Source: an uncultured bacterium (GTDB taxonomy: Bacteria; Patescibacteriota; Minisyncoccia; Phycocordibacterales; UBA2100). Taken from it: a stretch of 56,222 bases of DNA. Positions within the stretch are counted from its first letter, which is position 1. Every line of letters begins with the position of its first letter. A program made the position numbers and the translations under genes. The notes below the pieces were generated by a model. That model saw only the letters and a program-made list of their open reading frames with translations, searched no databases and was not told the DNA's origin. Location of the stretch: positions 1-56,222 of the forward strand of contig CAIJXH010000008.1 in assembly GCA_903824595.1 (NCBI GenBank), given 5' to 3'. Of this stretch, positions 3,739-51,508 are shown in pieces.

Positions 3739-4536
3739 ATGTACACCGAAGGACTCGTTCAGGTCGGCTTTACCAAAGACCAGGCGCTCGTATACGAAGC
3801 GCTTCTCAAGCGCGGCCGCTGCCGTGTAAGTGAGCTCAAAAAGCACGTCCGACTTTCCCGTCCGCTCATCTATAAGGTGCTCGACCGGCTCGTAGAGGTG
3901 GGCATCGTGTCAAAAGAAGAAAAGCCCGGGTCGGTCGCCACCTTCGCCACTGCCCACCCACTCAAGGTGAAGACCCTCATCGACAAACAGCGAGAGCAGG
4001 CCGACAGCGCCAAAAATGCACTCGATGGCCTGCTGGGCAAGCTCATATCGGATTTCAACACCGTCTCCGGCCAGCCGGGTGTACGTATACTCGACGGAAT
4101 GAGAGGAGTGAAAGAACTGTACGAGGACATCCAAAACGAACGTCAGGACATGCGCATTATCCGCACGTCTCTTAGTTATGGCGATCTGAACATACGGGAA
4201 TTCATAACGCAGCAGGTATTGGAGCAAGCGGGACTCGGTATCCATACACGAGTACTGTCGCCGATTTCTGCCAAAATGACACCCTCGCACATCAAGCGCG
4301 ATCCGGAAAAGCTCATCGAGCGCCGCATCATTCGTATGTCAACGCCGGCGCAGGTGCTCATCTACGCCAACAAAGTCGCACTTATCTCCTTTGCGGAACC
4401 TATCATGACGACCATTATCGAAAACGTACCGATCAAGGAGACATTCGCTGCGTTATTTGAGTACCTGTGGGAAATGAGTGCGGCAGAGCATGAAAAATTG
4501 TATGCCGAAGTGATGGCGCGGCCAGAGGCAGAGTAA
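3739..4536 (+). CDS. TrmB-family transcriptional regulator
   Basis: N-terminal wHTH (GFTKDQALVYEALLKRGRCRVSELKKHVRLSRPLIYKVLDRLVEVGIV) typical of TrmB-type regulators. Confidence 0.85.
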   Translation: MYTEGLVQVGFTKDQALVYEALLKRGRCRVSELKKHVRLSRPLIYKVLDRLVEVGIVSKEEKPGSVATFATAHPLKVKTLIDKQREQADSAKNALDGLLGKLISDFNTVSGQPGVRILDGMRGVKELYEDIQNERQDMRIIRTSLSYGDLNIREFITQQVLEQAGLGIHTRVLSPISAKMTPSHIKRDPEKLIERRIIRMSTPAQVLIYANKVALISFAEPIMTTIIENVPIKETFAALFEYLWEMSAAEHEKLYAEVMARPEAE

Positions 4537-20685: not shown

Positions 20686-21162
20686 CTATGATCGCATTCT
20701 AGCAAGGTGTGTAATGCCAACCGCAATCGCGTCGTACTCGTCGTCGTGTGTGATGGGTTTCTGGATACGGAGCAGGACACGGATCATTTTGGCGACGGCG
20801 CGCTTGTCGGCATTGCCTGATCCTGCTGCTGCTGATTTCACTTCGCCGGGCGAGTATTCGAAGAGGGGAATGCCAAGCACGGAGGCGACGTTCATGAGTG
20901 CGCCGCGCACCTCGGCGACATGCATCGCGGTTTTTTGGTTTTTGGCGAAGTACAATTTTTCCATCGCGATTGCGTCTGGTTTATATTCGCGAGCAAGGCG
21001 GTCGCACGCATCGGCGACCGCCGCCAGCCGCTCTGGGAACTCATCTTTTGCCGACGTTTCGATGCAATCCGAGTAGAGTAGCCGCTCTTTCCCGCCCCGC
21101 TCCTTCTCCACCACTGCCACGCCGCAGCGACCGTATCCAGGATCAATGGCGAGGACTTTCAT
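20686..21162 (-). CDS. ruvC: crossover junction endodeoxyribonuclease RuvC
   Basis: MKVLAIDPGYGRCGVAV... and a DEYDAIA catalytic region. Confidence 0.93.
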   Translation of the reverse strand: MKVLAIDPGYGRCGVAVVEKERGGKERLLYSDCIETSAKDEFPERLAAVADACDRLAREYKPDAIAMEKLYFAKNQKTAMHVAEVRGALMNVASVLGIPLFEYSPGEVKSAAAGSGNADKRAVAKMIRVLLRIQKPITHDDEYDAIAVGITHLARMRS

Positions 21163-21258
21163 TGCGGTATTGTAGCAGGTTGCGATTGGGGAAAACTTTT
21201 CGTATATTTCACTCCTCGCATCGTGTACACTTAGATGTGTGATGTGCGCGAAAGGCTT

Positions 21259-21837
21259 ATGAACAACACATCATCAAGTCAAACAACGGAAACGACGCCG
21301 GTCGTGTCTGTCGCTCCGCAGAGTCAGAGTTTTTTCGCATTCTCCTTGTACGATGTTCTCGTTCTCGTGGGCGTGTCCTCTATCATTGCCGCTCTCGTAT
21401 ACATAGGTCGCAAGCTTCAGATTCTCGATGATCTCAGGGCGACGGTGCACAAAATAAAAGTGAACGTGAAAGTCGTGAGCGATTATCTTGTAAAACATCA
21501 CAACAAATTCAATCCCGCGGAACTGCAGGCATATTCGCCGCTCGCGTTGACCATGCAAGGCAAGGAATTTGTACAGCAAATCGGCTTCGATAATGCGCTG
21601 TCTCAGCATAAGGCAGAATTTATGGATTTTATTGGCGGCGAAAATCCCAGATTGAAATATGACGTAGAGGTCGCTGCGATAAAATCGATCCACGCGCTGT
21701 ACCAGAAACCGTTTATGGAGTTTCTAAAAGTGTTTCTGTACAACAATCCCACCCGCAGCATCGAAGACGTCGCGCCAACTCTCGGTGTGTACGTCAGGGA
21801 TATGTATCTTGGTGAGCATCCCGAGATTACCCAATAG
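21259..21837 (+). CDS. hypothetical single-pass membrane protein
   Basis: ORF 21235..21837. GAAAGG lies upstream of the ATG at 21259. One TM helix (FFAFSLYDVLVLVGVSSIIAALVYI). Confidence 0.6.
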   Translation: MNNTSSSQTTETTPVVSVAPQSQSFFAFSLYDVLVLVGVSSIIAALVYIGRKLQILDDLRATVHKIKVNVKVVSDYLVKHHNKFNPAELQAYSPLALTMQGKEFVQQIGFDNALSQHKAEFMDFIGGENPRLKYDVEVAAIKSIHALYQKPFMEFLKVFLYNNPTRSIEDVAPTLGVYVRDMYLGEHPEITQ

Positions 21838-21861
21838 CTCGCCCTATGACGGAGACATTAT

Positions 21862-21890
21862 AGCGACCGCATCCGGGATCAATGGCGAGG
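21862..21890 (-). repeat. 29-bp duplicate (27/29) of ruvC codons 4-13
   Basis: AGCGACCGCATCCGGGATCAATGGCGAGG here versus AGCGACCGTATCCAGGATCAATGGCGAGG at 21126-21154. There is no start codon and no downstream ruvC homology. Confidence 0.8.
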
Positions 21891-22029
21891 GTGTGTATGA
21901 GTGAGTGTAACAATAAAGTACCACCTGTCGCCAAATCAGTAGAAATGCGTGAATGGAGGCCATAAAATGCCTGTCATTCACGGGATTTTGGCAAAAAGAC
22001 GTGAATGGTCGTCCTGACTACGTCCTCAC

Positions 22030-22112
22030 AATTGGTGACCAACGCCGCCTGCCGCCAAAGCATCCCCGTCTTTCGCGAGAAAGGGGTGTGGAGGATTGGG
22101 GTGGGGCAATAG
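22030..22112 (+). repeat. 83-nt repeat, copy R1
   Basis: Manual alignment with 24039-24121 gives 73/83 identical, and all 10 differences are transitions. Confidence 0.85.
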
Positions 22113-22320
22113 AGTCTCCGTGCGAGTTACGAACACGTACATACGACCTGTTTCGCGGCTCACTTTTTCTCGCAAAGAATCGGTGTATTATGTGTGGGTG
22201 TGGGTTTTGATTCTGCTAGGGAGAAAATTGCGACGCATGTTTGAATAAAATAAAAATAGCAAATATTTCACTTGCACGTATTTTTGAAATTTTAATAGTA
22301 CTACGATTAATAGCCATTTT

Positions 22321-23826
22321 ATGGAAAAATTTAAAAGGGGGGGCAAGGAGATGCGAATGCTGGTTACTCAAGATTGCAATTATAATTGCGTCATGTGTCA
22401 TGGTGAGGGGTTGCAAGAAGAAAAAGAGGCAACGCTTTCGCCTGATGATTTTGCTTTTATTTTTCGTGTTGGAAAAGAGCGACTCGGTATGGACACCACG
22501 ACTCTCACTGGTGGCGAGCCTTTGTTTAGAAAAGATATTGTAGAAATAGCAAAGAATCTTCACGAAGAGGGTGCAAAAATAACATTGACTACAAATGGGC
22601 GTTTACTGACACGGAGGATGGAGGTAGGTAAGTACTTAGATAGGATCAATGTTTCTGTACACACTATGAACGAGGAAAAGTATGAAGATCTTGTTCAGGT
22701 GAAAAATAGCTTTCATTCAGCGATGCATAATCTGAGGGCTTTTAGGCAAGCGTATCCAGAGGTGTCGATTGTTTTAAACACCACTTGTATTCGCGGATTT
22801 AATTCTGAACCTGATGATTTTAAGTCGCTGGTCGAGTTTGCGAAATCAATACGGGCATCTATCAAATTGATAGAATTATTTCCGCCAGACCGCACTGACG
22901 TAGTAAGTCTCGAAGAGGTGACCACTATACTTACTGCCCTGGGTTTTGTACCAACGGAGACAGAACTGCGCAAAAGAAAATTAAGTGATGGTCAAACAAC
23001 TGTCTCATTGACCCGGATATTTTGTGCGGAAGCCGTTAATAGTGGTGATCCTGCCGCTTTTTGTAATCAACAGAATGATGTGTTCATCTCTCCAGATGGA
23101 TTTGCAAAGCCGTGTCGCTCAGATAGTATGGAGGTGGACTTGAATTCGGCATTACGTAGTAGAAATGAGGACGAGATGGAAAGGCTTATCAAACACGCAT
23201 TTGCTGAAACAGGCCGCAGATGTGTTTACGATAGGAATAACCTATCGGAAATGGAGGCGCCCGAGACATTGACCGAAAAGTACGGCGAGCGTGCGTATGT
23301 GTTGGAAAAACTGGAAGCGTATCGAGGTGTTGACGCAGAAGAAGATGTGATGCGTTTAGATGTGGTTCAGTTTGTTAAGGATCACGAGAACTGTTTCGAT
23401 AGGAGTCTATCGACCGGACATGTCACTGGCTCGGCGCTTGTTGTTGATCCGGGTTTCAATCAAACCTTGCTTACCCACCATATGAAGCTGGATCGATGGT
23501 TTCAATTTGGCGGACATTCCGATGGTGACTGGAACACATTGCGCGTTGCGATGCGAGAGGCGCTGGAGGAGTCTGGGTTGAAGTCACTTCGTCCATATTC
23601 GGGTAACATCTTTAGTATTGATGTTCACCCGATTCCCGAGCGAGGAGATGAACCGGAGCACAAGCATTATGATGTTCGGTTTTTACTCATCGGAGACCCA
23701 CGCGAACCCTCAACGACTAGCAGTGAATCAAAAGAGTTGCGCTGGGTGAATCTTGATGATGCGGCACGTTTGAATCCAAGTGATGCAATGCGCAGAATGG
23801 TTGAAAAGGCGAAACGTCTCAAATAA
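22321..23826 (+). CDS. MoaA-like radical-SAM domain fused to a C-terminal Nudix hydrolase domain
   Basis: N-terminal half: CNYNCVMC (CX3CX2C), TGGEPLF, TLTTNG, NVSVHT and a distal Cys triad (FCAEAV...AFCNQQNDVFISPDGFAKPC). C-terminal half: Nudix box GGHSDGDWNTLRVAMREALEESGL. Alternative starts at 22351 or 22357 lie behind AAGGAG. Confidence 0.85.
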   Translation: MEKFKRGGKEMRMLVTQDCNYNCVMCHGEGLQEEKEATLSPDDFAFIFRVGKERLGMDTTTLTGGEPLFRKDIVEIAKNLHEEGAKITLTTNGRLLTRRMEVGKYLDRINVSVHTMNEEKYEDLVQVKNSFHSAMHNLRAFRQAYPEVSIVLNTTCIRGFNSEPDDFKSLVEFAKSIRASIKLIELFPPDRTDVVSLEEVTTILTALGFVPTETELRKRKLSDGQTTVSLTRIFCAEAVNSGDPAAFCNQQNDVFISPDGFAKPCRSDSMEVDLNSALRSRNEDEMERLIKHAFAETGRRCVYDRNNLSEMEAPETLTEKYGERAYVLEKLEAYRGVDAEEDVMRLDVVQFVKDHENCFDRSLSTGHVTGSALVVDPGFNQTLLTHHMKLDRWFQFGGHSDGDWNTLRVAMREALEESGLKSLRPYSGNIFSIDVHPIPERGDEPEHKHYDVRFLLIGDPREPSTTSSESKELRWVNLDDAARLNPSDAMRRMVEKAKRLK

Positions 23827-23929
23827 GCCACAGCTCACAAATAAGAGGCGACACAAACTGTCGCCTCTTTGCTTATAAAAGCAAGGTTGTTTACAGAACA
23901 AATACACTGGCCGTGCTACCATTTCGGCT

Positions 23930-23998
23930 ATGTCCATTCCCGACAAATACTCCGCGGTGTGGGTGTCGCATTCGTCGATGGATATGAAGTGTTGGTGA
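23930..23998 (+). pseudogene. displaced 5' fragment of the PD-(D/E)XK nuclease gene
   Basis: 23930-23981 matches 30731-30782 at 50/52. It reads MSIPDKYSAVWVSHSSMDMKCW*, and an indel after codon 17 breaks the frame. Confidence 0.8.
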
Positions 23999-24038
23999 GG
24001 TTGTTTGTGAGAAAAGGGTTTGCTGTTCGCCCGTAATT

Positions 24039-24121
24039 AATTGGTAGCCAACACCACCCGCCGCCAAAGCATCTCCGCCTTCCGCGAGAAGGGGGTGTGG
24101 AAGATTGGGGTGGGGCAATAG
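24039..24121 (+). repeat. 83-nt repeat, copy R2
   Basis: See copy R1 at 22030-22112. Confidence 0.85.
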
Positions 24122-24227
24122 TAATGTGTGCGGGATGAGTGTGGCATATTGTGTCGCACGGGATTCATTACGAGCTTCATAATATCTAAACTTTGGATAT
24201 TGACTTATTCAATACACGCTGTAGTGT

Positions 24228-24449
24228 ATGAAGAAGTCGACCCAGACCAAGGAATATGCCGTGTTTGTACAGATGCTTCGTGCGGCGCGGATTGATGCGG
24301 GGTTGACCCAGGCGCAAGCGGCAAAGAAACTCGATCGCCCGCAGTCCCATATTTCCAACGTGGAAACGGGGCAGCAGAGAGTAGATGTGATAGAACTGAA
24401 GCGGTTTGCAAAAATGTACGGGAAAGATATCAATTACTTTATAAAATAG
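24228..24449 (+). CDS. XRE-family helix-turn-helix regulator
   Basis: LTQAQAAKKLDRPQSHISNVETGQQRVDVIEL is a classic Cro/C1-type HTH. Confidence 0.85.
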   Translation: MKKSTQTKEYAVFVQMLRAARIDAGLTQAQAAKKLDRPQSHISNVETGQQRVDVIELKRFAKMYGKDINYFIK

Positions 24450-24452
24450 TTT

Positions 24453-25133
24453 ATGTTTTGGAACAAAAAAACTGAAAATAATTTAGACTCAACAATGATT
24501 GAGCTTGGACGTGAAATTGAAAGGGGGCTGCTTGCCTTAAGTGCAATAATAATTCAACATTGGGAGTATGAAGAAAATGACTACTATAAAGCTGTATCCA
24601 TAACGATGGATAATTTGCTGAAGGATAAAACATTGACTGATGCAGGCAGATTGGAAAAAGCAAAAGATATACTCGATTGGTCAAAGGCGTATAGAAAATT
24701 TATAGACGCTTCGTCAGCTAAATACGGGGATTTTATTCTTACAAGATTGAACCAGTTTGAGGAGATGTTAGAGCGCCTGCCAAAAACAAAGCCGCATGAA
24801 AAAGTTCAGGAATGGATAAAGCTTACTCGCGATTTGTGTAAAATTCGTGCTAGCGAAATTATCGCTATTGAACTTCATATAGAAAAAAATGAATTTATAC
24901 CGAAACTTGTCATTAGAGACGGGGGAAATTCTGAACAAAACATAACCGAGGAAGAAACAAATCAATTTGCACATCTAGTAGCTACTTACGGTTCTGAGCG
25001 ACAGCTTGCTTATGAAGCCAAAAAGAAAATCGAGCCAATGAGATCCAATTTAGCTGAGAGTATGTTTGGAAAACTTAATGATTACATGGAAGGTGGTAGT
25101 TATTCTAGTCTGTCTAGTCTGTTCATGAAATAA
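24453..25133 (+). CDS. hypothetical protein (predicted all-helical), AT-rich gene
   Basis: 226-aa ORF that starts 3 nt after the XRE stop. No motif recognised. Confidence 0.65.
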   Translation: MFWNKKTENNLDSTMIELGREIERGLLALSAIIIQHWEYEENDYYKAVSITMDNLLKDKTLTDAGRLEKAKDILDWSKAYRKFIDASSAKYGDFILTRLNQFEEMLERLPKTKPHEKVQEWIKLTRDLCKIRASEIIAIELHIEKNEFIPKLVIRDGGNSEQNITEEETNQFAHLVATYGSERQLAYEAKKKIEPMRSNLAESMFGKLNDYMEGGSYSSLSSLFMK

Positions 25134-25144
25134 ATTTAAACACT

Positions 25145-25711
25145 ATGAGTGGAGTGTTGAGATCAAGCCTCAATGGTGTGAATTTGCAAACCATGACAAG
25201 AGAGGTGCTAAGGATTACGGACGGATTTTTTTCGATGAGACAAAGAATTATATCTTTGTTGAAAGATCTTGAGTATGAAAAAGAGCTTTTAAACGTTACT
25301 TATACGTACGAAGATTATGAAACAGGAAACGGAGAATGTTGTGTTGAGGAGTTATTAACATTTCCAAACTATCAACTCATTTTCGATAAGTATTACGACA
25401 GATACCTCCAGACATATATTGGAAGCAAATCGATAGTTCCTCGCAATAACATTTTAGCCGAACTCCAGAGAATGGAATCTGATGGCTTAGTAATGGTTCG
25501 TATTCAAGAATGTGAGAAAGTATTTAGTCCCGATGTTATTGATTTTCGACCTGAAAAAAGAGAAAATTTCAAGACAGAAAGTATTGTTTTAACAACGAGA
25601 GGTAAAAGCAAATGGGGATACTCTTTGCATAAAGCATGGGAAAACCCGATTTCAACCGGTATAGCTATAAGCGCCCTTCTTGTGTCTATTATTGCGCTAT
25701 GGTGCAGATAG
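25145..25711 (+). CDS. hypothetical protein with possible winged-helix region and C-terminal TM anchor
   Basis: NNILAELQRMESDGLVMVR...IVLTTRGKSKW resembles a wHTH. The C-terminus ISTGIAISALLVSIIALW is hydrophobic. Confidence 0.6.
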   Translation: MSGVLRSSLNGVNLQTMTREVLRITDGFFSMRQRIISLLKDLEYEKELLNVTYTYEDYETGNGECCVEELLTFPNYQLIFDKYYDRYLQTYIGSKSIVPRNNILAELQRMESDGLVMVRIQECEKVFSPDVIDFRPEKRENFKTESIVLTTRGKSKWGYSLHKAWENPISTGIAISALLVSIIALWCR

Positions 25712-25762
25712 GGGTAATTGATGTTGGGGTCTGACCCCACTATCCATTATGCTGCCCGTGTA

Positions 25763-26059
25763 TCATCCTCTCCCAACTCCAAAAAAGAAATATGCAATGA
25801 GTGTCGCAGCCAGACCAGTCGAGAATGTGATTAGTGCCCCTCCCCACCATGTACTGTGCCAGTCGTCTACATGCGATTGATGGGGAATAACATGTTTGTT
25901 ATTTCTAAGGGCTGCATCTGTAATCTCACCCTGATTATCAAGAAAATCTGCTTCGCCTATTAGTGTATTGTTTTTCGCGTCCATGCCGTTTATAGCTGCG
26001 CCATGTGTCACTCTAACGAACGCGGGTCTTTCATGTTTTGAATCCTCATCTTCTTTCAT
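25763..26059 (-). CDS. hypothetical small tail-anchored membrane protein
   Basis: 98-aa ORF with C-terminal WWGGALITFSTGLAATLIAYFFFGV. It converges on the hairpin GGGGTCTGACCCC at about 25725-25737. Confidence 0.5.
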   Translation of the reverse strand: MKEDEDSKHERPAFVRVTHGAAINGMDAKNNTLIGEADFLDNQGEITDAALRNNKHVIPHQSHVDDWHSTWWGGALITFSTGLAATLIAYFFFGVGRG

Positions 26060-26114
26060 GGGGCATATTATGTATCAAAAATCAAAGGAAACAAGAATGC
26101 ATACACTTGCGGAG

Positions 26115-26142
26115 TTGACCTTGTGCGCACATTGTATATACT
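26115..26142 (+). promoter_or_regulatory. promoter of the dinJ-like gene
   Basis: TTGACC, a 16-nt spacer, then TATACT. The ATG is 6 nt downstream with no SD. Confidence 0.45.
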
Positions 26143-26148
26143 AGATGC

Positions 26149-26397
26149 ATGACCACACTCAATGTCAGAATAGAAGAGAAAACGAAACTTGCGGCGAGTA
26201 AGGCATTGGCAGATATTGGGCTCGATTTGTCGTCGGGTGTGAAGTTGTTTCTCCATCAGGTGGTAACGGAAAAAGGATTGCCGTTTACGCCCACCAAGAA
26301 TGCCGCCGTTATTCGTGCCAAGTGGGACGCCGAAGTTGTGCAAGCTCGCGCAGGGCGAAGGTATGCGAATGCCAAGGATGTTTTGAGAGAGGTGTAG
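26149..26397 (+). CDS. RelB/DinJ-family antitoxin (no adjacent toxin gene)
   Basis: LNVRIEEKTKLAASKALADIGLDLSSGVKLFLHQVVTEKGLPF matches the DinJ ribbon-helix-helix pattern. Confidence 0.75.
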   Translation: MTTLNVRIEEKTKLAASKALADIGLDLSSGVKLFLHQVVTEKGLPFTPTKNAAVIRAKWDAEVVQARAGRRYANAKDVLREV

Positions 26398-26426
26398 GTG
26401 TTTACAGGTGAGCCAGAAAGTAATTT

Positions 26427-26444
26427 GCCCCGCTTTCGCGGGGC
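26427..26444 (+). terminator. GC-rich hairpin after dinJ
   Basis: GCCCCGC-TTTC-GCGGGGC. There is no clear T-run. Confidence 0.4.
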
Positions 26445-26539
26445 GAGGCCGAAGCCATATATACCAATATAGTAACAACTGAAAGCGGGAAGTCAATCTC
26501 ACTTGAAAACCGTCCGAAAAAGCCCATACTTGGGCGAAT

Positions 26540-29299
26540 ATGGCAATCAATTGGCGCGACATTCAGGAGAGGGCGACGATTTTCGCTCACAAGTATGCCG
26601 ATGCCAAAGATGAGGATCGTGATGCGAAGCCTTTTTGGAAAGACTTGCTTGAACTCTACGGTGTGGACCCGCGTCAAATCGGAGCGTTTGAGGAGCGCGT
26701 ACGTATTCACGGCAGGCCTGGGGTGGGGAAGATAGACTACTTCGCGCCGCATAAGTTTATCATCGAGCATAAGTCGCGCGGCAAGGATCTTGGTGTTGCG
26801 TATCGACAAGCGATGGACTATTTCGACGCGCTTTCGAAGACAGATCGTCCACGCTACATTATCGTTTCTGATTTTGCGCGTTTCCATGTGTACGATCTTG
26901 AAGCTTCCGAAGAAAATCGTTTCGTTGAATTCTCTCTTGAAGAACTTCCGAAGCGCGTGCGCCAATTCGCATTCTTTGCCGACGAAGATGTGCGCGTGTA
27001 CAAACCCGAAGAGCCAATCGACGTGAAAGCCGTTCGCTCTATCGGTAGGCTCCATGATGCGCTCCGTTCTTCCAACTATTCCACGGCGCACCTCTCGCCG
27101 CTTCTCACGCGTCTCGTCTTCCTGTTTTTCGCCGACGACACCGGTATTTTTGAGAACAACGCTATTCGCGAGTATCTCGATGCAAACACCAATCCCGACG
27201 GCTCTGACATTGGCGACAAGCTCAATGGCATATTCCAGGTACTTGATACGCCACAAGAAATGCGACAGACGACGCTCCATCCAGTGCTCGCGAATCTACC
27301 ATATGTGAACGGGGGATTGTTTGCCGCTCCGCTTCCCGTGGTCTTTGTGTCACGCGAAGTGCGCGAGACTATCCTTGCATGCGCCGCCTTCGACTGGTCG
27401 CGTGTGTCTCCTGCCATCTTCGGTTCGATGTTTCAGTCGGTGATGAACGAAAAAGAGCGACACGATCTCGGTGCACACTACACGAGCGAAACCAACATTC
27501 TCAAGGTTATCAACGGCCTTTTTCTCGAAGAACTACGCACCGAGCTCGAAGCCGCAAAGACCAACCGCGAAAAACTCCTTGCGCTCCAAGAACGATTGGC
27601 CAAAATAACCCTGCTTGATCCTGCGTGTGGTTGCGGCAACTTCCTCGTGGTTGCGTATCGCGAATTGCGCAAGGTTGAGAATGATGTCATTGCGCGACTT
27701 TACAACAAGACGAGTACCACTAAAGTGGAGGCGGGTCACACGGTGTTGCCGCTCGGTGTCAATCTCAAAACTATCTCCAAAATGTCGGTCGAGCGCATGT
27801 ACGGCATCGAAATCGATTCGTTCCCCGCCGAAGTCGCTAAACTCTCGCTCTGGCTCGTCGATCACCTAATGAACGTCGAGCTCGGCAAGCTCTTCGGTCA
27901 GCCACTCACCAAGCTCCCGCTTACCGAAGCGCCGCACATCGTTCAAGGCAATGCTCTGCGCCTCGATTGGGAATCGGTCGTGCCCAAAGATAAACTCACC
28001 TACATTCTTGGAAACCCACCGTTTCTCGGTTCGCGGGTGATGAGTCTAGAACAAAAGGGAGATATTGAAACAATATTTGGGGATACGCGCGGTGTAGGAA
28101 ATTTAGACTATGTTGCTGGTTGGTATTTAAAAGCAGGAGACTATATACAAAACACTCGCATAACATGTGCGTTTGTTTCTACCAACAGTATCACGCAAGG
28201 CGAACAAGTTAATGTTTTGTGGAAATTTCTCATCGAACAACGTGGTGTACATATCCGCTTTGCGCACCGTACGTTCAAATGGAGCAATGAAGCGACAGGG
28301 AAAGCCGCCGTGTTTTGCGTAATTGTTGGTTTTGGACTGAGTGAAATTAAACAACCTAGAATATATGAATATGCTGATATCGGCGGCGAGGCAAAAGAAG
28401 TTAAAACACAGCACATCAATCCTTACATGGTCGATGCTCCCGATGTTTTTATAGAAAGCAGAAACAAACCATTGAATGGTAATGTGCCCCGGATGAGTGT
28501 TGGTAACTTACCAATTGATGGCGGCATCTATTTGTTCACGACCGAGGGAAAAGCAGAGTTTCTGAAACGAGAGCCACAATCGAAGAAATATTTCCGAAGG
28601 TGGATCGGCTCCGACGAATTTTTGAATGGCTGGGAGCGTTGGTGTCTGTGGCTCGGAGATGCGAGTCCGAGCGATCTTAGAGATATGCCAGAAATAATGA
28701 GGCGTATTGATGCGGTAAAACAGTTTCGTCTATCCAGCAAGAGACCTGCTACCAGAAAATTAGCTGAAACACCAACGCATTTCCATCTTGAAAATATGCC
28801 GACCGGAAACTATTTAGTCGTACCAAAAGTCTCATCAGAGCGTCGTCGCTACATTCCCATTGGTTTTGAACATCCTTCAACGTTTGCTAGCGATCTTGTT
28901 TTTATCGTGCCGGAAGCAACTCTCTATCACTTCGGCGTTCTCGAAAGTGAAATGCATATGGCGTGGATGCGGGTGATCGCAGGTCGTTTGAAATCGGACT
29001 ATCGGTACTCAAATACCATCGTCTACAACAACTTTCCATGGTCGGAGGACTCAACCGACGAGCAGAAAAGGGAAGTGGAAACGGCGGCACAGGCGGTACT
29101 CGACGCGCGCGCGGCTCACGCGGGCGCGACACTTGCCGATCTCTACGATCCGCTCACCATGCCCAAGGATTTGCTCGATGCTCACCACCACCTCGACCGC
29201 GCCGTAGATGCCTGCTACGGCAAACGCAAATTCAAGAACGAGCCGGAGCGGCTTGAGTACTTGTTCGAGAAGTATAAAGAATTGATAGCCAAGAAATAA
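26540..29299 (+). CDS. MmeI-like type IIL restriction-modification enzyme (nuclease + N6-adenine methyltransferase + TRD in one chain)
   Basis: 919 aa. N-terminus MAINWRDIQERA...AKPFWKDLLELYGV...DYFAPHKFIIEHKSRGKDL (D...EXK). Methyltransferase motifs LDPACGCGNFL and GNPPFLG. Confidence 0.88.
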   Translation: MAINWRDIQERATIFAHKYADAKDEDRDAKPFWKDLLELYGVDPRQIGAFEERVRIHGRPGVGKIDYFAPHKFIIEHKSRGKDLGVAYRQAMDYFDALSKTDRPRYIIVSDFARFHVYDLEASEENRFVEFSLEELPKRVRQFAFFADEDVRVYKPEEPIDVKAVRSIGRLHDALRSSNYSTAHLSPLLTRLVFLFFADDTGIFENNAIREYLDANTNPDGSDIGDKLNGIFQVLDTPQEMRQTTLHPVLANLPYVNGGLFAAPLPVVFVSREVRETILACAAFDWSRVSPAIFGSMFQSVMNEKERHDLGAHYTSETNILKVINGLFLEELRTELEAAKTNREKLLALQERLAKITLLDPACGCGNFLVVAYRELRKVENDVIARLYNKTSTTKVEAGHTVLPLGVNLKTISKMSVERMYGIEIDSFPAEVAKLSLWLVDHLMNVELGKLFGQPLTKLPLTEAPHIVQGNALRLDWESVVPKDKLTYILGNPPFLGSRVMSLEQKGDIETIFGDTRGVGNLDYVAGWYLKAGDYIQNTRITCAFVSTNSITQGEQVNVLWKFLIEQRGVHIRFAHRTFKWSNEATGKAAVFCVIVGFGLSEIKQPRIYEYADIGGEAKEVKTQHINPYMVDAPDVFIESRNKPLNGNVPRMSVGNLPIDGGIYLFTTEGKAEFLKREPQSKKYFRRWIGSDEFLNGWERWCLWLGDASPSDLRDMPEIMRRIDAVKQFRLSSKRPATRKLAETPTHFHLENMPTGNYLVVPKVSSERRRYIPIGFEHPSTFASDLVFIVPEATLYHFGVLESEMHMAWMRVIAGRLKSDYRYSNTIVYNNFPWSEDSTDEQKREVETAAQAVLDARAAHAGATLADLYDPLTMPKDLLDAHHHLDRAVDACYGKRKFKNEPERLEYLFEKYKELIAKK

Positions 29300-29306
29300 A
29301 TTCAAA

Positions 29307-29324
29307 CCCCGCCTTTCGGCGGGG
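29307..29324. terminator. shared hairpin between convergent genes
   Basis: CCCCGCC-TTTC-GGCGGGG, between the MmeI-like gene (+) and the 46-aa ORF (-). Confidence 0.5.
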
Positions 29325-29331
29325 TCGTGTG

Positions 29332-29472
29332 CTACTTTGCTGTTCCGTAGCCGCGTCTCGGCATATGCTCGACAACATAACGTTCGGGATTGCCACTTCG
29401 AGCTTTCCTAACCGGGACAAGTTCCCCGGTCTTCGCATCTCTGCCTATTTTGAATGACTTTGATTTCGCCAT
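29332..29472 (-). CDS. small basic protein (46 aa)
   Basis: Manual translation gives MAKSKSFKIGRDAKTGELVPVRKARSGNPERYVVEHMPRRGYGTAK*. It resembles a small conserved protein family recalled from plasmid and TA contexts. Confidence 0.4.
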   Translation of the reverse strand: MAKSKSFKIGRDAKTGELVPVRKARSGNPERYVVEHMPRRGYGTAK

Positions 29473-29567
29473 ACGATTTGTTTATCCAGTAATTCTCCGG
29501 AGCGCACGCCAGATTGAACATTATTGTATGGTGAGGATTTATCCATGTCAATATTGTGGACAATTTG

Positions 29568-29595
29568 TTGACAAGAATCCTGACGTATGGATAAT
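29568..29595 (+). promoter_or_regulatory. promoter of the HTH-Panacea gene
   Basis: TTGACA, a 16-nt spacer, then GATAAT. The ATG at 29602 is 6 nt downstream, which suggests a leaderless start at MSQSTLL.... Confidence 0.5.
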
Positions 29596-30369
29596 AAAAA
29601 CATGTCTCAATCTACATTGCTTCGGGAGTTGCGGGAGGGGGAGGGGTTGGCGCAGGAAGCGGTCGCCAAGGAGCTTGGTGTGTCGCGCCCGACCTATATC
29701 GCGCTCGAACAAGGGAAGCGGGAGCTTACGCTTGGCGAGGCGCAGAGTGTGGCGCGGATGTACGGCGTCCCGCTCGATGTGATCGCGTCGGGCAAGAAGC
29801 CGGCGGAAATAGCGCTTCCCAAAGGCAAGGAGAAAAAAGAGAAGCCGTACGTGCGTATTAGTGTGCCGCAGGAGCGGATCGACAAATTCAAGCAGGTGCT
29901 TTTGTATCTTTTGGGGAAGACGGCGGGCAAGCCCAATGTGGGCGAGACGGTGCTGTACAAGCTCCTCTACTTTATCGATTTTGACTACTACGAAAAGTAC
30001 GGGGAACAGCTCATGGGGTTGCGGTATATTCGCAACCATTTTGGTCCGTCGCCGCGTGCGTTTGGGGCGGTTGTGCGTGAGATGGAGAAGGCGAACGAGA
30101 TAGAAAAAGTGAAAAGCACCTATTTTGCGCACGACCAAAAGAAATATTTGCCGCACAAGGTTGCCGACTTGTCTGTTCTTTCGGGGCGAGAAGTGGAAAT
30201 GATTGATGATGTGCTCTCGCGGTATGGCGACAAAAACGCGTCGGAACTTTCCGCGCTCACACACGAAGATATGCCGTGGATGGCGGCAAAGCAAGGCCAA
30301 GATATCCGGTATGAGCATGTGTTCTATCGCTCCGACAAGCTATCGGTTGGTACCTATGACGAGCTATAA
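29587..30369 (+). CDS. XRE-HTH fused to a DUF4065 (Panacea/SocA-like) antitoxin domain
   Basis: The HTH is LAQEAVAKELGVSRPTYIALEQGKREL. The Panacea-type core is VLYKLLYFIDFDYYEKYGEQLMGLRYIRNHFGPSP. The alternative start is 29602. Confidence 0.8.
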   Translation: MDNKNMSQSTLLRELREGEGLAQEAVAKELGVSRPTYIALEQGKRELTLGEAQSVARMYGVPLDVIASGKKPAEIALPKGKEKKEKPYVRISVPQERIDKFKQVLLYLLGKTAGKPNVGETVLYKLLYFIDFDYYEKYGEQLMGLRYIRNHFGPSPRAFGAVVREMEKANEIEKVKSTYFAHDQKKYLPHKVADLSVLSGREVEMIDDVLSRYGDKNASELSALTHEDMPWMAAKQGQDIRYEHVFYRSDKLSVGTYDEL

Positions 30370-30381
30370 ACGCGACCGACT

Positions 30382-30726
30382 ATGGAATTTGGCGAGACAT
30401 CCGAGTTTGCGCACGATTTGAAGCGGTTGAGAAAGAAATATCTGTCACTCGACGAAGATGTGACTGCTCTGCGAGAGGCGATCGAAGTGTCTCCGAGTGG
30501 AGATGGGGCAAAACATTGCAACTGCATGCGTCGTGCGGGAGATGTCATCGTCTACAAAATCCGTCTCGCATGTCGGTACTTACAGGCATCGCGCATGCGC
30601 GTGATATACGCGCATCATGTGAAAGAGCGAAAAGTCGTATTCATCGAGCTGTATTACAAAGGCGAACATGTGCACGAGGATGGTGGCAGGATTACGGCGT
30701 ACCTGAAATCGAATATGCTACAGTAA
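30382..30726 (+). CDS. RelE/ParE-superfamily toxin
   Basis: FAHDLKRLRKKY...VYKIRLA...RMRVIYAHHVKERKVVFIELYYKGE follows the RelE/HigB-like pattern. It starts 12 nt after the antitoxin stop. Confidence 0.7.
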   Translation: MEFGETSEFAHDLKRLRKKYLSLDEDVTALREAIEVSPSGDGAKHCNCMRRAGDVIVYKIRLACRYLQASRMRVIYAHHVKERKVVFIELYYKGEHVHEDGGRITAYLKSNMLQ

Positions 30727-30730
30727 TTCC

Positions 30731-31576
30731 ATGTCCATCCCCGACAAATACTCCGCCGTGTGGGTGTCGCATTCGTCGATGGGGGATTTTTTGAAGTGTC
30801 CAAGGGCGTACTTTTTGCACAATGTCTATAAGAATCCGAAGACGGGCAGGAAGATGACGCTCGTCGCGCCGCCGCTTTCGCTAGGGGCTGCGGTGCATAC
30901 GACGCTCGAAGATTTGAAACACCTTCCCGTGGAAGAGCGCATGAAGCGCGATTTGTTGGCGGATTTTGAGAAAGCGTGGGAGGCGGTGTCGGGCAAAAAG
31001 GGAGGATTTACGAGCGAGGAAGAGGAGGCAGCGACCAAGGCGCGCGGCAAGGCGATGGTCGAGCGTGTGGTGCAAAATCCCGGACCAATCGCGCGAAAGA
31101 CGGTCAAGCTTCCCGCCGCACACAACAACATGCCGCCCAATTTCTACCTCTCCGAAGAAGACAACATTATCCTCTGCGGACTCATCGACTGGATCGAATA
31201 TGTGGAAGCCGACGACAGTATCCGCGTCTTGGATTTCAAGACAGGCAAGCATGAAGAGTCGGGTGATTCGCTCCAATTGCCGATCTATCTTCTGCTTTTG
31301 AATGCGCTCCAGAGGCGCCGCGTCAGCGGCGCCTCGTACTGGTATTTGGAAAAAGACGACGCGCCGATTGTGGTGGATTTGCCTGATGCGGCGGAAGCGC
31401 GTGAAGCAGTGCTCGCGGTGGCGAGGCGCGTGAAAGAGGCGCGGGAGAAAAAAGAGTTTGCGTGTCCGCGCGGCGAGCAGCAGTGTTTCGCGTGTCGCCC
31501 GTATGAAAAAATCTTGGCAGACGAAGCGGAATACATCGGCGTGGGCGGGTACGGACAGGATGTATACCTCGTGTAA
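30731..31576 (+). CDS. PD-(D/E)XK (RecB/Cas4-like) nuclease with four-Cys cluster
   Basis: N-terminal CPRAYF, core IDWIEY...VLDFKTGK, QLPIYLLL, and C-terminal CPRGEQQCFAC. Confidence 0.8.
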   Translation: MSIPDKYSAVWVSHSSMGDFLKCPRAYFLHNVYKNPKTGRKMTLVAPPLSLGAAVHTTLEDLKHLPVEERMKRDLLADFEKAWEAVSGKKGGFTSEEEEAATKARGKAMVERVVQNPGPIARKTVKLPAAHNNMPPNFYLSEEDNIILCGLIDWIEYVEADDSIRVLDFKTGKHEESGDSLQLPIYLLLLNALQRRRVSGASYWYLEKDDAPIVVDLPDAAEAREAVLAVARRVKEAREKKEFACPRGEQQCFACRPYEKILADEAEYIGVGGYGQDVYLV

Positions 31577-31616
31577 CAAAAAGGAGATTGGCGGTGCCAA
31601 TCTCCCGTAATTATGG

Positions 31617-31817
31617 TTATGGCTTTTTTTTCCACTTGGCGTTTGGTTGTTTACGCCAATCTGTGCTCCATTCGGTGATGTTTATTCGTCTGCCCTTTCC
31701 TACGCCTGTTTTAGCGGGCGGTGGCGCAACTCCTGATCCGTTGCATTGTTTGCAGTCGATCCCCGCGCTGTCGCGTCCCGTCCCGCCACAAAATGCGCAT
31801 GCACTCGCTTCATCCAT
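31617..31817 (-). CDS. small DnaJ-type zinc-finger protein
   Basis: CAFCGGTG and CKQCNGSG repeats (CxxCxGxG) with a basic tail. Confidence 0.5.
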   Translation of the reverse strand: MDEASACAFCGGTGRDSAGIDCKQCNGSGVAPPPAKTGVGKGRRINITEWSTDWRKQPNAKWKKKP

Positions 31818-31881
31818 CTTTCACACGTCCATAATTCACTGGTGAACTTGTCTCACTGCATTGTACCATTGTGTTTTGCTG

Positions 31882-48821: not shown

Positions 48822-49954
48822 TGCAGGCTTTCGGGGATCTCTGCGGAAATATCGTGCAGCATATCCGCTATTGCTTTTTTACTCACCGCCACTGCCGCAT
48901 TGCCAAACATCGTCTTGTATTCCGTCACGAGCGTTTCGATCGTGTTGCGAACATTGATCCCTGCGGCGATATGCGCTTTTTCGTGATGTTCATCGACAGA
49001 GATTCCTTCTATCTTTTGAGCCATGACCCACGCCAGATCGCCAATAACCTCTTGTTGTGCAAAAATAATTCTGGTTACGATCGTATCGGGGGTTGGTGCT
49101 GTGTTCTCGACAAGAGGCGATTCGCACACTCGTTCTGCTACAGTTTTCGACATCGAACCAATGCGTATGAGAGCCATTGTCATGCAGAAATATGATACGA
49201 GATACAAAAAATCACTCGTTCCTCCTGAATAAAATGTTTCAACATGAGCTTGATAGAGAAATATAAAATCAGCAAAATATTGAACAACAAGAGCTATGAT
49301 AAGAAATATGATTGGCTGTCGTATCATGCCGCCCGATGTCTTCCACGAAAGCGATAGCGCAAGAATTGCAATAGATACATACATGGCCTGACCAAGCGGA
49401 TAACCTATATCAAGGAATGTCTTTAGTGGTTGCGACCAGTCGTATTGATAATCTCCGAGAAAAACAATAAACGAGAAACTCAACATGAAAATCGGAACAA
49501 ATAGCACCTGAATCCGGCCAGCAAATGATTTTATCGATATTTCAGCACCAGATAATTGTGCAAGCATATATGCACCAGATAAATAAAACGGGATGCTCCC
49601 AAAAAATCCAATATCAGCTAATGACGGATATGGGATATCAATATGCAAAATTGTCGTGTAAAAACTGAATACAGTCTGCCCGATGCCTTGAAGTAAAAGA
49701 CCTGCCCCGAAACATATCATGCTCATGCCGAGTCGACTATGAACATCTCCCCATACATGAGAATTTTTGAGAGCATATATAGCTCCAAACCAAGCCAAAA
49801 ATTGATATGTAGCAGCCCACACAAGGTTCTGCTCTATCAGTCGAGATTCAAAGAAGAAATATAAAACAGCCCACCAACCTGTCAACATTAAAAAATAAGA
49901 GAAAACAAAAATTGACGAAACATCATGCTTTACTTTGTCAAGAATTTTCAACAT
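48818..49954 (-). CDS. polytopic membrane protein, probable sensor module coupled to the kinase
   Basis: About 8 predicted hydrophobic segments plus a soluble C-terminal domain. The stop overlaps the kinase ATG (ATGA). Confidence 0.7.
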   Translation of the reverse strand: MLKILDKVKHDVSSIFVFSYFLMLTGWWAVLYFFFESRLIEQNLVWAATYQFLAWFGAIYALKNSHVWGDVHSRLGMSMICFGAGLLLQGIGQTVFSFYTTILHIDIPYPSLADIGFFGSIPFYLSGAYMLAQLSGAEISIKSFAGRIQVLFVPIFMLSFSFIVFLGDYQYDWSQPLKTFLDIGYPLGQAMYVSIAILALSLSWKTSGGMIRQPIIFLIIALVVQYFADFIFLYQAHVETFYSGGTSDFLYLVSYFCMTMALIRIGSMSKTVAERVCESPLVENTAPTPDTIVTRIIFAQQEVIGDLAWVMAQKIEGISVDEHHEKAHIAAGINVRNTIETLVTEYKTMFGNAAVAVSKKAIADMLHDISAEIPESLQ

Positions 49955-49991
49955 AAAACATATGGTACACCAACCGCCATATTTGTCGATT

Positions 49992-50942
49992 CTATTTACT
50001 TCGTATTTTGTATTTTTTCAAATAATCAACGGGTCGATAAGATAATTTCATCCTTCTTAGTGAATCGATGCCTAAATCTTGTTCATAATTGATGAGCTCG
50101 ATCCCGTCTTCATAAAGGAGTCTTGCTTTTGATTGCATAAGAAAGTCGAAGACACCAACATATGCAACATCAGCTTTCCAGAAATGGCAAATACTATATT
50201 TATTTGGCAATACCTCATCGAAACTAAAAGCGACCGTCTCGTTGCTTGCTTGGACGGTGGTCAGTCGCACGTTATGAGAATCGAAAGTGTTACATAATCG
50301 TTTGATGCAATGACGTTCATGTTCAATATTAAATTCTTTGTGTTGCTCCAGTTTTCTCAGTTCCCACACGTCTAAAATATGCTCAAGAGTTTCCTCGATA
50401 ATTTTGTCTATCGAATCATGTGTTTCAACACGTATGTCTAGATTTTCTTTGGAAAACTTTCTAGATCTCCCACGTTTAGTCTGAAATTTCAGACCACTCA
50501 TCATAGTTAACTCACGAATTGAATATATGTAATCAAAATTATCATTGTCGTCTTCGAACTTCAAGTGCAATGATTGGAAATTTTCGACTGATATTTCAGG
50601 TACAAGCCTCAGTATTGGGGGCAACCCATTCTTAATGCAGTATTCCAATAGCAAAATAGAAGTCTTCTCTTGTTCGTTATCTCCAAGAAAAGAAAGAAAC
50701 GGCTCACCAGAATGATAATCTGTAAATAACACCACTAAGTTTCCGTTGAGTTCACTAATTTGTCGCTTTCCTTCTGTGTCCCACGCCCAGAGACTTGTGA
50801 AATTAAAATCAGAGTACGGAGCATATTTACTCGTGTATGATTCAATACTTGTCCTATCAGACAGCTCCAATGGTTTAAAGTTAGGGAATGTAGGGATCAT
50901 GTTCAATTTTAGTAACATACTTGAAAGTAGTGACTTTGGCAA
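49992..50942 (-). CDS. DUF2156 protein (MprF C-terminal-like aminoacyl-tRNA-dependent transferase fold)
   Basis: YSDFNFTSLWAWD and DYIY...L...G.KFQTKRGRSRKF are typical of DUF2156 / lysyl-PG synthase C-terminal domains. Confidence 0.7.
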   Translation of the reverse strand: MPKSLLSSMLLKLNMIPTFPNFKPLELSDRTSIESYTSKYAPYSDFNFTSLWAWDTEGKRQISELNGNLVVLFTDYHSGEPFLSFLGDNEQEKTSILLLEYCIKNGLPPILRLVPEISVENFQSLHLKFEDDNDNFDYIYSIRELTMMSGLKFQTKRGRSRKFSKENLDIRVETHDSIDKIIEETLEHILDVWELRKLEQHKEFNIEHERHCIKRLCNTFDSHNVRLTTVQASNETVAFSFDEVLPNKYSICHFWKADVAYVGVFDFLMQSKARLLYEDGIELINYEQDLGIDSLRRMKLSYRPVDYLKKYKIRSK

Positions 50943-51508
50943 GCAAAATGGGTATGCACACCAGTATGTTAGTTAGGAATACATACATGGGATATAGAGC
51001 CAGAGTAAATGTGAAATTTTCCAGAGCGAAGAGATTCAGAAAACTTGCAAATAGTGTAATAAACCATGCCACACTGTCCTCGGAGTGAGAGGCAACCCAT
51101 GCTTTGTGAAATAGTTGGTGCAATCCCGAATGCGTCTACGACTATCTCACTATAGAGACCGATTTGTGCCGATCCTGTTTTTACCCATAGGCAAAATCCA
51201 AAGAGAGCGCCAACGAGACAAGCTATATTGAAAAGAGATAGTGAAAAAGCCTGTCCGTAACGCATCGATAGTATTGCAATAAAGAAACAATCAATTGTAT
51301 ATGTGAAGGGAAGCCATGCGGTGGCACGAGCACCTACACTGAGATAGCTAGCCGTGATTATCAATGACGTAAGAGCAAATATCCACCATGTTATCTTGTG
51401 TGGCTGTGTTGTTCCTCGAAATATTGCAAATATATATCTTGCACTTGCAAAAATCGCACACAAACCTGCGGCAACTCCAAAGCCAGACGAAATAGTCATT
51501 ATTCCCAA
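50881..51508 (-). pseudogene. membrane protein, paralog of 51944..52621, interrupted by a frameshift
   Basis: Frame A (50969..51508) aligns to the paralog up to APTISQS. Frame B (50881..51123) continues as WVASHSEDSVAWFITLFASFLN...LYPMYVFLTN. The shift is near 51113. Confidence 0.6.

Follow-up and report, generated by a model that had tools for sequence, protein, structure and literature searches.

Radical S-adenosylmethionine (rSAM) enzymes that remodel nucleotides are few; they include viperin, MoaA, QueE, OxsB, AbmM and ThmA. Each of these gave new chemistry, and several gave antiviral or antibiotic nucleoside analogues. MoaA abstracts H-3', and in puromycin biosynthesis a Nudix enzyme blocks the build-up of a toxic triphosphate. 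For the genes adgB-E, homologues of pur10, pur4, pur7 and pur3, conversion of GTP to 3'-amino-3'-deoxyguanosine has been proposed (PMC9239236), and in Photorhabdus 4'-thiothymidine is made by thmA (an rSAM enzyme), thmB (a kinase) and thmC (annotated as a nucleoside triphosphatase, which confers self-resistance) (PMC12691670). Here we describe a gene that joins an rSAM domain to a Nudix domain in one polypeptide. It lies at 22321-23826 of a 56,222-nucleotide contig from an uncultured Patescibacteriota bacterium (CAIJXH010000008.1; the whole contig is referred to as the window).

We read this gene as a two-step nucleotide-modifying enzyme that would act as an antimetabolite module, and we place middling confidence in this reading. 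Its nucleotide-modifying part is well supported by comparative genomics. The family to which the rSAM domain belongs is previously undescribed and stands among the nucleotide-remodelling rSAM modules: no description of it was found in the literature or in curated libraries, and no family-specific NCBIfam or Pfam model was found. The gene is a compact, single-polypeptide member of this uncharacterised family, whose partners specify a pathway of kinase, rSAM enzyme, optional aminotransferase and pyrophosphatase.

The fusion gene and its MoaA-fold domain

An earlier reading of the letters alone (the sequence-only reading) had proposed a MoaA-like rSAM enzyme fused to a Nudix hydrolase at this position, and the translation bore it out. 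CNYNCVMC was found at residues 19-26, GGEP at 64-67, TLTTNG at 88-93, NVSVH at 110-114, C235-x12-C248-x16-C265 with FISPDGFAKPC at 255-265, and REALEESGL at 412-420. Pfam found both domains, Radical_SAM at residues 14-164 (E 1e-22) and NUDIX at residues 380-489 (28.2 bits against a cut-off of 21.1); the latter region also matched PDB 3fcm (residues 340-484, E 3e-12). The domain boundary could be placed from relatives, as stand-alone rSAM homologues stop near residue 305 and the stand-alone Nudix proteins P0035 and P0036 align from about residue 318. The same protein, from a later start (P0001, 489 aa, 100% identical), was found on an independent 3.6-kb contig; hence the fusion is no assembly accident of the window. 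There are three candidate starts, at 22321, 22351 and 22357. A G-run and a strong AAGGAG Shine-Dalgarno sequence (22337-22359) lie inside the 5' end of the open reading frame (ORF), just before the ATG at 22357. This ATG is the start used for P0001, and its use would drop R12, a residue that hardly varies among family members. Since the gene has its own terminator-like hairpin after the stop codon, it looks monocistronic.

MoaA was the top match of the N-terminal domain by sequence profile and by fold. Three NCBIfam MoaA models aligned end to end (residues 2-296) with 158.8 (archaeal type, TIGR02668), 145.4 and 128.4 bits, against cut-offs of 325.25, 231 and 284.05 bits, respectively. Mob_synth_C of Pfam was sub-threshold (19.7 bits against 37.4, residues 240-296). 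In the full-length AF2 model, which is usable for the rSAM domain only, block-mean pLDDT was mostly above 90 across about residues 11-300. Foldseek with this model gave MoaA (1tv7/2fb2) as the best PDB matches, with E of 1e-15 to 1e-17 and a TM-score of 0.74 normalised to MoaA over 316 columns, followed by DesII, SuiB, BlsE, AbmM and viperins; the structural comparison with MoaA and viperin that the sequence-only reading had called for thus came out on the side of MoaA. The NCBIfam viperin model NF038283 scored 62.5 against a cut-off of 180, and the PADLOC models for prokaryotic viperins (pVips) reached 65 bits, covering the rSAM core alone (residues 14-178).

Alignment with genuine MoaAs revealed what is kept and what is replaced. 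R12, GGEPxxR70, TTNG, NxS and K182 (at the Arg position of the MoaA RFIE motif) are kept; we take these to be the triphosphate-binding residues of the MoaA-GTP structure. R12 lies in the column of MoaA R17, where the triple-mutant sequence of 2fb2 has Ala. The MoaA motif F-C-x-x-C-x-R-x-R reads F-C-N-Q-Q-N-D-V-F here, so that the second cluster Cys is Q251 and the guanine-binding Arg pair (R266/R268 of S. aureus MoaA) is replaced by D253 and F255. C235 is a new Cys within a 9-residue insertion relative to MoaA, and a fourth conserved Cys, C301, stands where MoaA has its tail. The sequence-only reading had likened the Cys triad to the auxiliary-cluster region of MoaA. This was right for the region, in which two of C235, C248 and C265 match MoaA cysteines, but one Cys is new, C301 follows, and the motif is not the CX2CX13C of MoaA. 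The four conserved cysteines are compatible with a putative Cys-ligated auxiliary [4Fe-4S] cluster, as in the twitch/SPASM (BtrN-like) dehydrogenases. GTP, which had been brought in from the precedent of MoaA, is unlikely as the substrate, because the guanine-binding Arg residues are replaced by Asp and Phe, and the kinase fusions found in relatives (see below) point to cytidine or other pyrimidine nucleotides.

The rSAM domain ends ...GRRC and runs into the Nudix domain; a terminal GG was not found. Genes for molybdenum cofactor (Moco) synthesis near the fusion gene were lacking, in agreement with the sequence-only reading: tblastn with E. coli MoaB, MoaC, MoeA and MoeB matched neither the window nor any of 37 family loci, which were taken from assemblies, GTDB genomes and metagenomes and had their genes mapped. 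Moreover, no recurrent Moco Pfam family occurred among 150 neighbour proteins of the family loci.

The family and its gene partners

A profile built from 26 homologues was searched against 1.84 billion representative proteins and yielded 245 matches below 1e-30. The diagnostic columns were read in an alignment of these matches together with the proteins of the first search, and 127 of the proteins retrieved from both searches carried the signature: R12, CX3CX2C-H-x-E, H114, K182, C235, C248, a non-Cys residue at 251, N252-D253-x-F255, C265 and usually C301. The window protein has all signature positions (RCCCHERHKCCQNDFCC, 456.6 bits). Position 251 was non-Cys, and both MoaA Arg positions were replaced, in 127 out of 127. 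Below about 175 bits the matches change to archaeal-type MoaAs, with C-x-x-C and R-x-R in the same columns. Such a sharp signature, with a switch to MoaA features below that score, marks the family as a distinct offshoot of archaeal-type MoaA, and the gene is not the orphan that it had been called. The hosts are Patescibacteria (Shapirobacteria, Moranbacteria and others) and gut Clostridia, and the family loci come mostly from metagenome-assembled genomes (MAGs). In the source records the members are labelled 'radical SAM protein' or 'cyclic pyranopterin phosphate synthase'; knowledge of the substrate and product alone would annotate about a hundred protein clusters so labelled, or in the latter case mislabelled.

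It might be supposed that the gene encodes a true MoaA, i.e., a GTP 3',8-cyclase for Moco, to which a Nudix domain was fused by chance. The best matches by profile and fold speak for this. All three MoaA model scores, however, lie under their cut-offs; CX2C, the Arg pair and the C-terminal GG are absent, the first two throughout the 127 proteins; and the Moco genes were not found in the window or the 37 loci. We consider this explanation effectively refuted. As judged from the sequence, the N-terminal domain is a MoaA fold yet not a MoaA, and not a Moco enzyme. The sequence-only reading had named three findings that would speak against it, and none of the three was observed: co-occurrence with moaC, moaB or moeA was not found, the contexts are not syntenic, and MoaA is the nearest family.

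A few observations on individual members may be added. In two loci the family rSAM gene is broken by in-frame stops or frameshifts (L050, 5001-5870; L023, 6001-6823). An alternative genetic code was considered and rejected, as translation table 25 leaves in-frame stops; the broken copies are probably pseudogenes or assembly errors. In L053 the family rSAM gene is closely preceded by a second MoaA-like stretch (4022-4513, 32% identity to residues 12-175 of E. coli MoaA). L003, rich in small unknown ORFs, seems to be mobile, but its only strong PHROGs match was that of its methyltransferase. A phage origin of the family was also considered and rejected: a scan of viral contigs gave distant rSAM proteins only, and the best phage match (H1), on a high-GC contig, is a true MoaA (CADCRRTR..., GG end) and not a family member.

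Gene partners were counted in the 24 non-redundant loci whose flanks were long enough. Within about 2 kb, 23 of these have a Nudix gene or domain, and the sole exception, L019, has a CYTH triphosphatase. Among the 150 neighbour proteins NUDIX was the first Pfam family (23 matches), and the module-relevant families that came next were DegT (5) and CYTH (3). The arrangements and fusions are listed in the table; the family signature was present in the rSAM domains of all the rSAM fusion proteins. In fusions and operons the order of genes or domains is kinase, rSAM, aminotransferase and phosphohydrolase. The partner Nudix proteins resemble the nucleoside triphosphate (NTP) pyrophosphatases NudI, MutT and NudG, and the partner aminotransferase is of the DegT type, a kind acting on nucleotide-linked keto sugars. 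Nearly all the gene partners are nucleotide enzymes (Nudix, CYTH, HD, (d)CMP kinase and thymidylate-kinase-like). The proposal that the fusion makes and then processes a modified nucleotide fits these data in that every recurrent partner is a nucleotide enzyme, but a viperin-style triphosphate as the end product is disfavoured.

The Nudix domain of the window protein belongs to a subtype (GHVTGSA..., closest PDB entry 3fcm) that differs from the usual family partner, with 24-28% identity between the two. It is 45-46% identical to P0035 and P0036 and 45% identical to a 186-aa Nudix protein of L022, a locus with both subtypes beside the rSAM gene. As the subtypes differ, the window fusion and the P0108/P0155 fusion are independent events. 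Recurrence as adjacent genes and in at least two independent fusions supports the view that the coupling of rSAM and Nudix is functional and not accidental. The module seems to need an NTP pyrophosphatase and not one particular orthologue. It may be noted that the homologues of the window Nudix subtype (P0035-P0046) include fusions with GNAT, DUF262 (GmrSD-like), APH-type kinase/GrpB and CofE domains, several of which are typical xenobiotic- or antibiotic-modifying families.

The aminotransferase raises a different possibility, that of tailoring of nucleoside diphosphate (NDP) sugars. Here a DesII/BlsE-like rSAM enzyme would act on a CDP- or UDP-hexose, DegT would aminate the keto-sugar, and the Nudix enzyme would free the sugar phosphate for a surface glycan (Pse/Leg-type or dideoxy-sugar). 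DesII, BlsE and AbmM are indeed among the next structural matches after MoaA; the closest curated families of the aminotransferase are PseC, LegC, ArnB, RfbH and DesI; many Nudix enzymes cleave NDP-sugars; and an Eis-like GNAT occurs near some Clostridia loci. However, no nucleotidyltransferase, 4,6-dehydratase or glycosyltransferase recurred among the 150 neighbours, the CYTH, HD, (d)CMP kinase and thymidylate-kinase-like partners act on plain nucleotides, and the partner Nudix proteins resemble NTP pyrophosphatases. Moreover, the minimal module is rSAM and Nudix only, in the window one monocistronic gene, so that the substrate must be a ubiquitous metabolite. We regard NDP-sugar tailoring as unlikely.

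For the nucleotide-modifying reading, the following scheme may be proposed. In the first step, the rSAM domain would bind an NTP, most likely CTP or another pyrimidine NTP, as suggested by the cytidylate kinase (Cmk) fusions, the NudI/NudG-like partners and the Asp that replaces a MoaA Arg. The 5'-deoxyadenosyl radical would take a hydrogen from the ribose, and in the absence of cyclisation onto guanine C8 the sugar would be oxidised or dehydrated (as in the dehydration by ribonucleotide reductase), probably leaving a carbonyl; the DegT enzyme would have a substrate only if there were a carbonyl. The four-Cys auxiliary [4Fe-4S] cluster may serve as an electron conduit or acceptor, as in the twitch-type rSAM dehydrogenases. 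In the second step, the fused Nudix domain would cleave the modified NTP to the monophosphate and pyrophosphate, which would keep a toxic triphosphate from the producer's polymerases and commit the product to the monophosphate or nucleoside. That this is the useful product is suggested by the phosphohydrolase, which is near-obligatory in the family and covalently attached here. In relatives this module is made up of separate genes, and it is extended by a (d)CMP kinase upstream, DegT in mid-pathway (keto to amino) and HD or CYTH phosphohydrolases downstream. It may be noted that in the gut Clostridia MAGs (L013-L018 and L020) the genes for the rSAM-DegT protein and the double Nudix lie among those for the Eis-like GNAT, a small AAA/dNK-like kinase, DUF5131 and MgtE; by analogy with puromycin acetyltransferase, this GNAT could acetylate an amino-nucleoside.

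A bolder version of the scheme can be offered as a tentative and rather doubtful conjecture. The family would be a hitherto unrecognised class of nucleotide-analogue synthases, derived from MoaA on a line separate from viperin: abstraction of the 3'-H on a cytidine nucleotide would give a 3'-keto or 2'-deoxy-3'-keto product, which with the aminotransferase would become a 3'-amino-3'-deoxy chain terminator; and the Nudix enzyme would turn it into a monophosphate or nucleoside prodrug, with phages, hosts or competitors as the targets of the ultra-small Patescibacteria that make it. Confirmation of the pathway proposed for the family would show that nucleotide-analogue production was reached from a cofactor enzyme by a second evolutionary route, that the puromycin-type aminonucleoside pathway has an anaerobic counterpart, and that Patescibacteria, of whose biology little is known, have a chemical weapon or defence.

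Genome context and the proposed role

The fusion gene lies in a variable insert between ruvC and yebC. Besides it, the insert carries ORF200, a helix-turn-helix (HTH) gene with two unknown ORFs, RelB, an MmeI-type restriction-modification (RM) enzyme, an HTH-Panacea antitoxin with a small ORF, and a PD-(D/E)XK (Cas4-like) nuclease; the RM enzyme, toxin-antitoxin (TA) genes and nuclease that had been seen in the insert were thus recovered by matches. To judge from YebC homologues, the window belongs to the Patescibacteria, in the company of Paceibacterota and Kaiserbacteria-like genomes. In the relative L125 (YebC 82% identical) the order is ruvB, yebC, ruvC, PBP, dnaN, dnaA, and the hotspot is empty, with a yebC-ruvC gap of 65 nt. 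Other relatives have VIT1 and a fatty-acid desaturase between yebC and ruvC (L126/L127), or an N6/N4 methyltransferase and a PD-(D/E)XK nuclease (L123/L124). The nuclease gene is the sole cargo shared with the window (79% nucleotide identity of L123/L124 to 30755-31575). The ruvC/yebC gap is therefore a hotspot of variable content, and the rSAM-Nudix gene counts as accessory, as the sequence-only reading had supposed.

The gene is bracketed by two 83-nt direct repeats, again as previously noticed; these are the only two copies in the window, and no third copy was found there or in any fetched locus. The bracketing fits a cassette-like acquisition, although the island ORFs that were scanned yielded neither a recombinase nor an integrase. 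The GC content of the gene is lower than that of the window, but the AT-richness claimed for it is modest (0.449 against 0.498), and the window itself is heterogeneous.

From these data, a role of the product in conflict may be proposed, less certain than the chemistry. The fusion would make a nucleotide or nucleoside antimetabolite against phage or other bacteria, and in this Patescibacteria genome it would have been acquired as a small cassette in the ruvC/yebC hotspot.

A strict viperin-type immunity was also considered, in which the modified NTP would be a chain-terminating effector in the infected producer, with the Nudix domain limiting self-damage or resetting the system. The RM, TA and nuclease genes of the island are in line with it, as are the pVip matches to the rSAM core (65 bits) and the kinase fusions, which parallel those of pVips. 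Against it, a fused and near-obligatory pyrophosphatase would destroy the effector during its synthesis; the NCBIfam viperin score is far below its cut-off; the family has an auxiliary-cluster domain, of which none is known in viperins; and most family loci are outside recognisable defence contexts. This mode of action is quite improbable in our judgement.

Several points weigh against the antimetabolite reading as a whole. The substrate, the site of hydrogen abstraction and the product are proposed from homology and gene association, and the window gene has no kinase or aminotransferase neighbour, so that the cytidine and carbonyl assignments are transferred from relatives. No exporter or monophosphatase adjoins it either. 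The metal-binding REUxEE core of its Nudix domain is intact (REALEESGL), as had been noted before, but the first Glu of the full box (GX5EX7REUXEEXGU) is Trp here, at a position where the closest relatives and 3fcm likewise have no Glu, and for the Nudix part the AF2 model is of low quality, with pLDDT under 50 over most of residues 334-486. Given the Trp and this model, the Nudix activity of the fusion protein is assumed. There would seem to be little point in making an NTP and then hydrolysing it if the useful species were not the monophosphate or nucleoside. As to the conflict role, collections of 50,697 phage records and 72,556 plasmids yielded no family member. The neighbours of the rSAM gene in L001 are ribosomal-protein, adk and map genes, and L019 and L021 are in LysR-regulated operons. 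PADLOC was rejected as a support for defence, as its 12 PDC-S07 matches among neighbours are generic MutT-like Nudix proteins and the window Nudix was not matched. The defence role favoured by the sequence-only reading is plausible from the island context of this one genome, but that context argues weakly for conflict and is not general to the family; other members stand in housekeeping or metabolic contexts.

Some of the same observations would suit a housekeeping function in reduced genomes, i.e., anaerobic salvage, conversion or sanitation of nucleotides (for example, a route to a deoxy- or canonical nucleotide, or damage repair), and no antimetabolite. The hosts are Patescibacteria and small-genome Clostridia MAGs, L001 has the neighbours just mentioned, the LysR regulators suggest metabolite-responsive control, and the MutT/NudI-like partner Nudix is of the house-cleaning type. 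Yet the family is rare and patchy (about 127 signature proteins among those retrieved), the contexts of its loci are not syntenic, the rSAM copy is disrupted in two loci, and the hotspot is empty in a close relative, which indicates that the fusion gene is dispensable. We think such a function improbable, and retain the antimetabolite reading at the strength given above.

Table. Features of the window, followed by gene arrangements and fusions in relatives (L, loci; P, proteins)
Feature	Position, locus or protein	Strand	Basis
rSAM-Nudix fusion gene, 501 aa	22321..23826	+	translation; P0001 (489 aa) 100% identical
MoaA-fold rSAM domain, residues 1-305	22321..23235	+	NCBIfam archaeal MoaA, AF2, Foldseek
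CX3CX2C cluster motif CNYNCVMC (C19, C23, C26), then family-conserved H27-G-E29-G	22375..22398	+	translation, family alignment
Auxiliary-cluster region, conserved C235, C248, C265, C301, with N252-D253-x-F255 in place of MoaA C-x-R-x-R	23023..23223	+	alignments
Interdomain linker, residues 306-317	23236..23271	+	alignment to stand-alone rSAM proteins and stand-alone Nudix P0035/P0036
Nudix domain with N-terminal helical extension, residues 318-501	23272..23823	+	Pfam NUDIX, PDB 3fcm, relatives
Nudix box G398-x5-W-x7-REALEESGL	23512..23580	+	translation, alignments
Terminator-like hairpin, 40 nt past stop codon	23867..23886	+	consensus match only
Variable insert between ruvC and yebC, 10.7 kb	21163..31881	.	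locus comparison
83-nt direct repeat, copy 1, 209 nt upstream of ATG	22030..22112	.	repeat search
83-nt direct repeat, copy 2, 88% identical to copy 1, 213 nt past stop	24039..24121	.	repeat search
rSAM directly followed by Nudix	L001, L003, L010, L011, L022, L043, L044, L047, L051
rSAM, one gene, Nudix	L012
Divergent Nudix and rSAM	L024
DegT, rSAM, unknown gene, Nudix	L005, L009
rSAM, DegT, then Nudix or Nudix-kinase	L008, L053
rSAM-DegT fusion (~715 aa), then double Nudix	L013-L018, L020
716-aa ORF with DegT and Nudix domain matches, near disrupted rSAM	L050
LysR, rSAM, CYTH, then Nudix-like gene ~1.3 kb downstream	L021
(d)CMP kinase-rSAM fusion	P0073, P0080		P0073: kinase 140.7 against NCBIfam cmk cut-off 135.55
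rSAM-Nudix fusion, MutT-like Nudix	P0108, P0155
rSAM-HD fusion	P0096
rSAM-DegT fusion	~10 proteins
Nudix-thymidylate-kinase-like fusion	L008
HD phosphohydrolase genes adjoining rSAM	L011, L044, L054

The nature of the 83-nt repeats was examined separately. A structured RNA was rejected on fold z-scores of -0.6 and -1.5 for the + strand and about 0 for the - strand; Rfam found 4 tRNAs only in the window and no match at the repeats. Integron attC sites were rejected as well, since neither RYYYAAC/GTTRRRY cores nor a long imperfect hairpin could be seen by eye and no integrase was found. When both copies were read on the minus strand by eye, a similar peptide appeared (PHPN-PHP-LA--GDALAAGGVG-Q), and a 75-aa minus-strand ORF (23891-24118) begins with copy 2. 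Duplication of the 5' end of a gene, rather than a regulatory element, may explain the repeat.

Elsewhere in the island, the 29 nt that code for the RuvC N-terminus (LAIDPGYGR, minus strand) occur twice, at 21126-21154 and 21862-21890, with 93% identity, the duplicate sitting across ORF200 (21235-21837, no Pfam match); the pattern points to an insertion at the 5' end of ruvC that duplicated its target site. Three co-directional genes at 24228-25711 have the lowest GC of the island (0.38). They encode a 73-aa XRE-type HTH protein followed by proteins of 226 and 188 aa with no Pfam match, the latter with a hydrophobic C-terminal segment (by eye), and could form an uncharacterised defence or abortive-infection module. 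Two more AT-rich stretches, at 49001-51000 and 55001-56000, with a GC of 0.37-0.39 where the window has 0.50, may also have been acquired.

Comparison with known systems

The closest described relative is MoaA (archaeal type TIGR02668; PDB 1tv7/2fb3), which has the same fold across some 310 residues, the C-terminal domain among them, and shares the CX3CX2C motif with H-x-E after it, GGEPxxR, TTNG, NxS, the Arg equivalent to MoaA R17 and two of three auxiliary Cys. Unlike MoaA, the family is without the second Cys of CX2C and the base-binding Arg residues (Asp and Phe instead) and has the new Cys235 and Cys301, and the window protein has no C-terminal GG; the family loci lack moaC, moaB and moeA neighbours and almost always have Nudix.

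With viperin or pVip and its CMPK2-type kinase, the family would share an rSAM enzyme acting on the ribose of an NTP, a small accessory module and, at the family level, association or fusion with a cytidylate kinase (P0073, P0080), although the window gene has no adjoining kinase. PADLOC includes models of viperins associated with or fused to kinases. The alignment with viperins is limited to the rSAM core, and viperins are not paired with a pyrophosphatase, since the viperin triphosphate is itself the effector.

BtrN, DesII and BlsE resemble the DegT-containing members in that a keto-generating rSAM enzyme is paired with a DegT-family, pyridoxal phosphate-dependent enzyme, and the Cys-ligated auxiliary cluster of BtrN is thought to accept an electron. 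Their substrates, in contrast, are aminocyclitols, TDP-sugars and cytosyl-glucuronate, they have no Nudix partner, and the similarity is limited to the rSAM core.

ThmA/B/C, AbmM (albomycin) and OxsB/OxsA (oxetanocin) likewise combine a sugar-remodelling rSAM enzyme with a nucleotide kinase and/or a phosphohydrolase. These rSAM enzymes are of other subfamilies (AbmM, a lower-ranked structural match, aligns over about 105 residues only), phosphohydrolases of the ThmC/OxsA type are not Nudix, and the producers, such as Streptomyces for albomycin and Bacillus for oxetanocin, are not bacteria of the candidate phyla radiation.

The logic of the proposed pathway resembles that of Pur10/Pur4/Pur7/Pur3 and AdgB-E, namely an NTP, oxidation of its sugar, DegT-type transamination, a Nudix pyrophosphatase directly after these modifying steps, and a monophosphatase. 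The gene belongs neither to this group nor to the viperins. It differs in that those substrates are purine nucleotides and the oxidation is by an NAD-dependent dehydrogenase (Pur10); Pfam found no such domain in the fusion gene or the family neighbours, and the rSAM enzyme would fill that place here. The window gene, without an aminotransferase, has Nudix alone, whereas DegT and Nudix both occur in L005, L008, L009, L013-L018, L020, L050 and L053.

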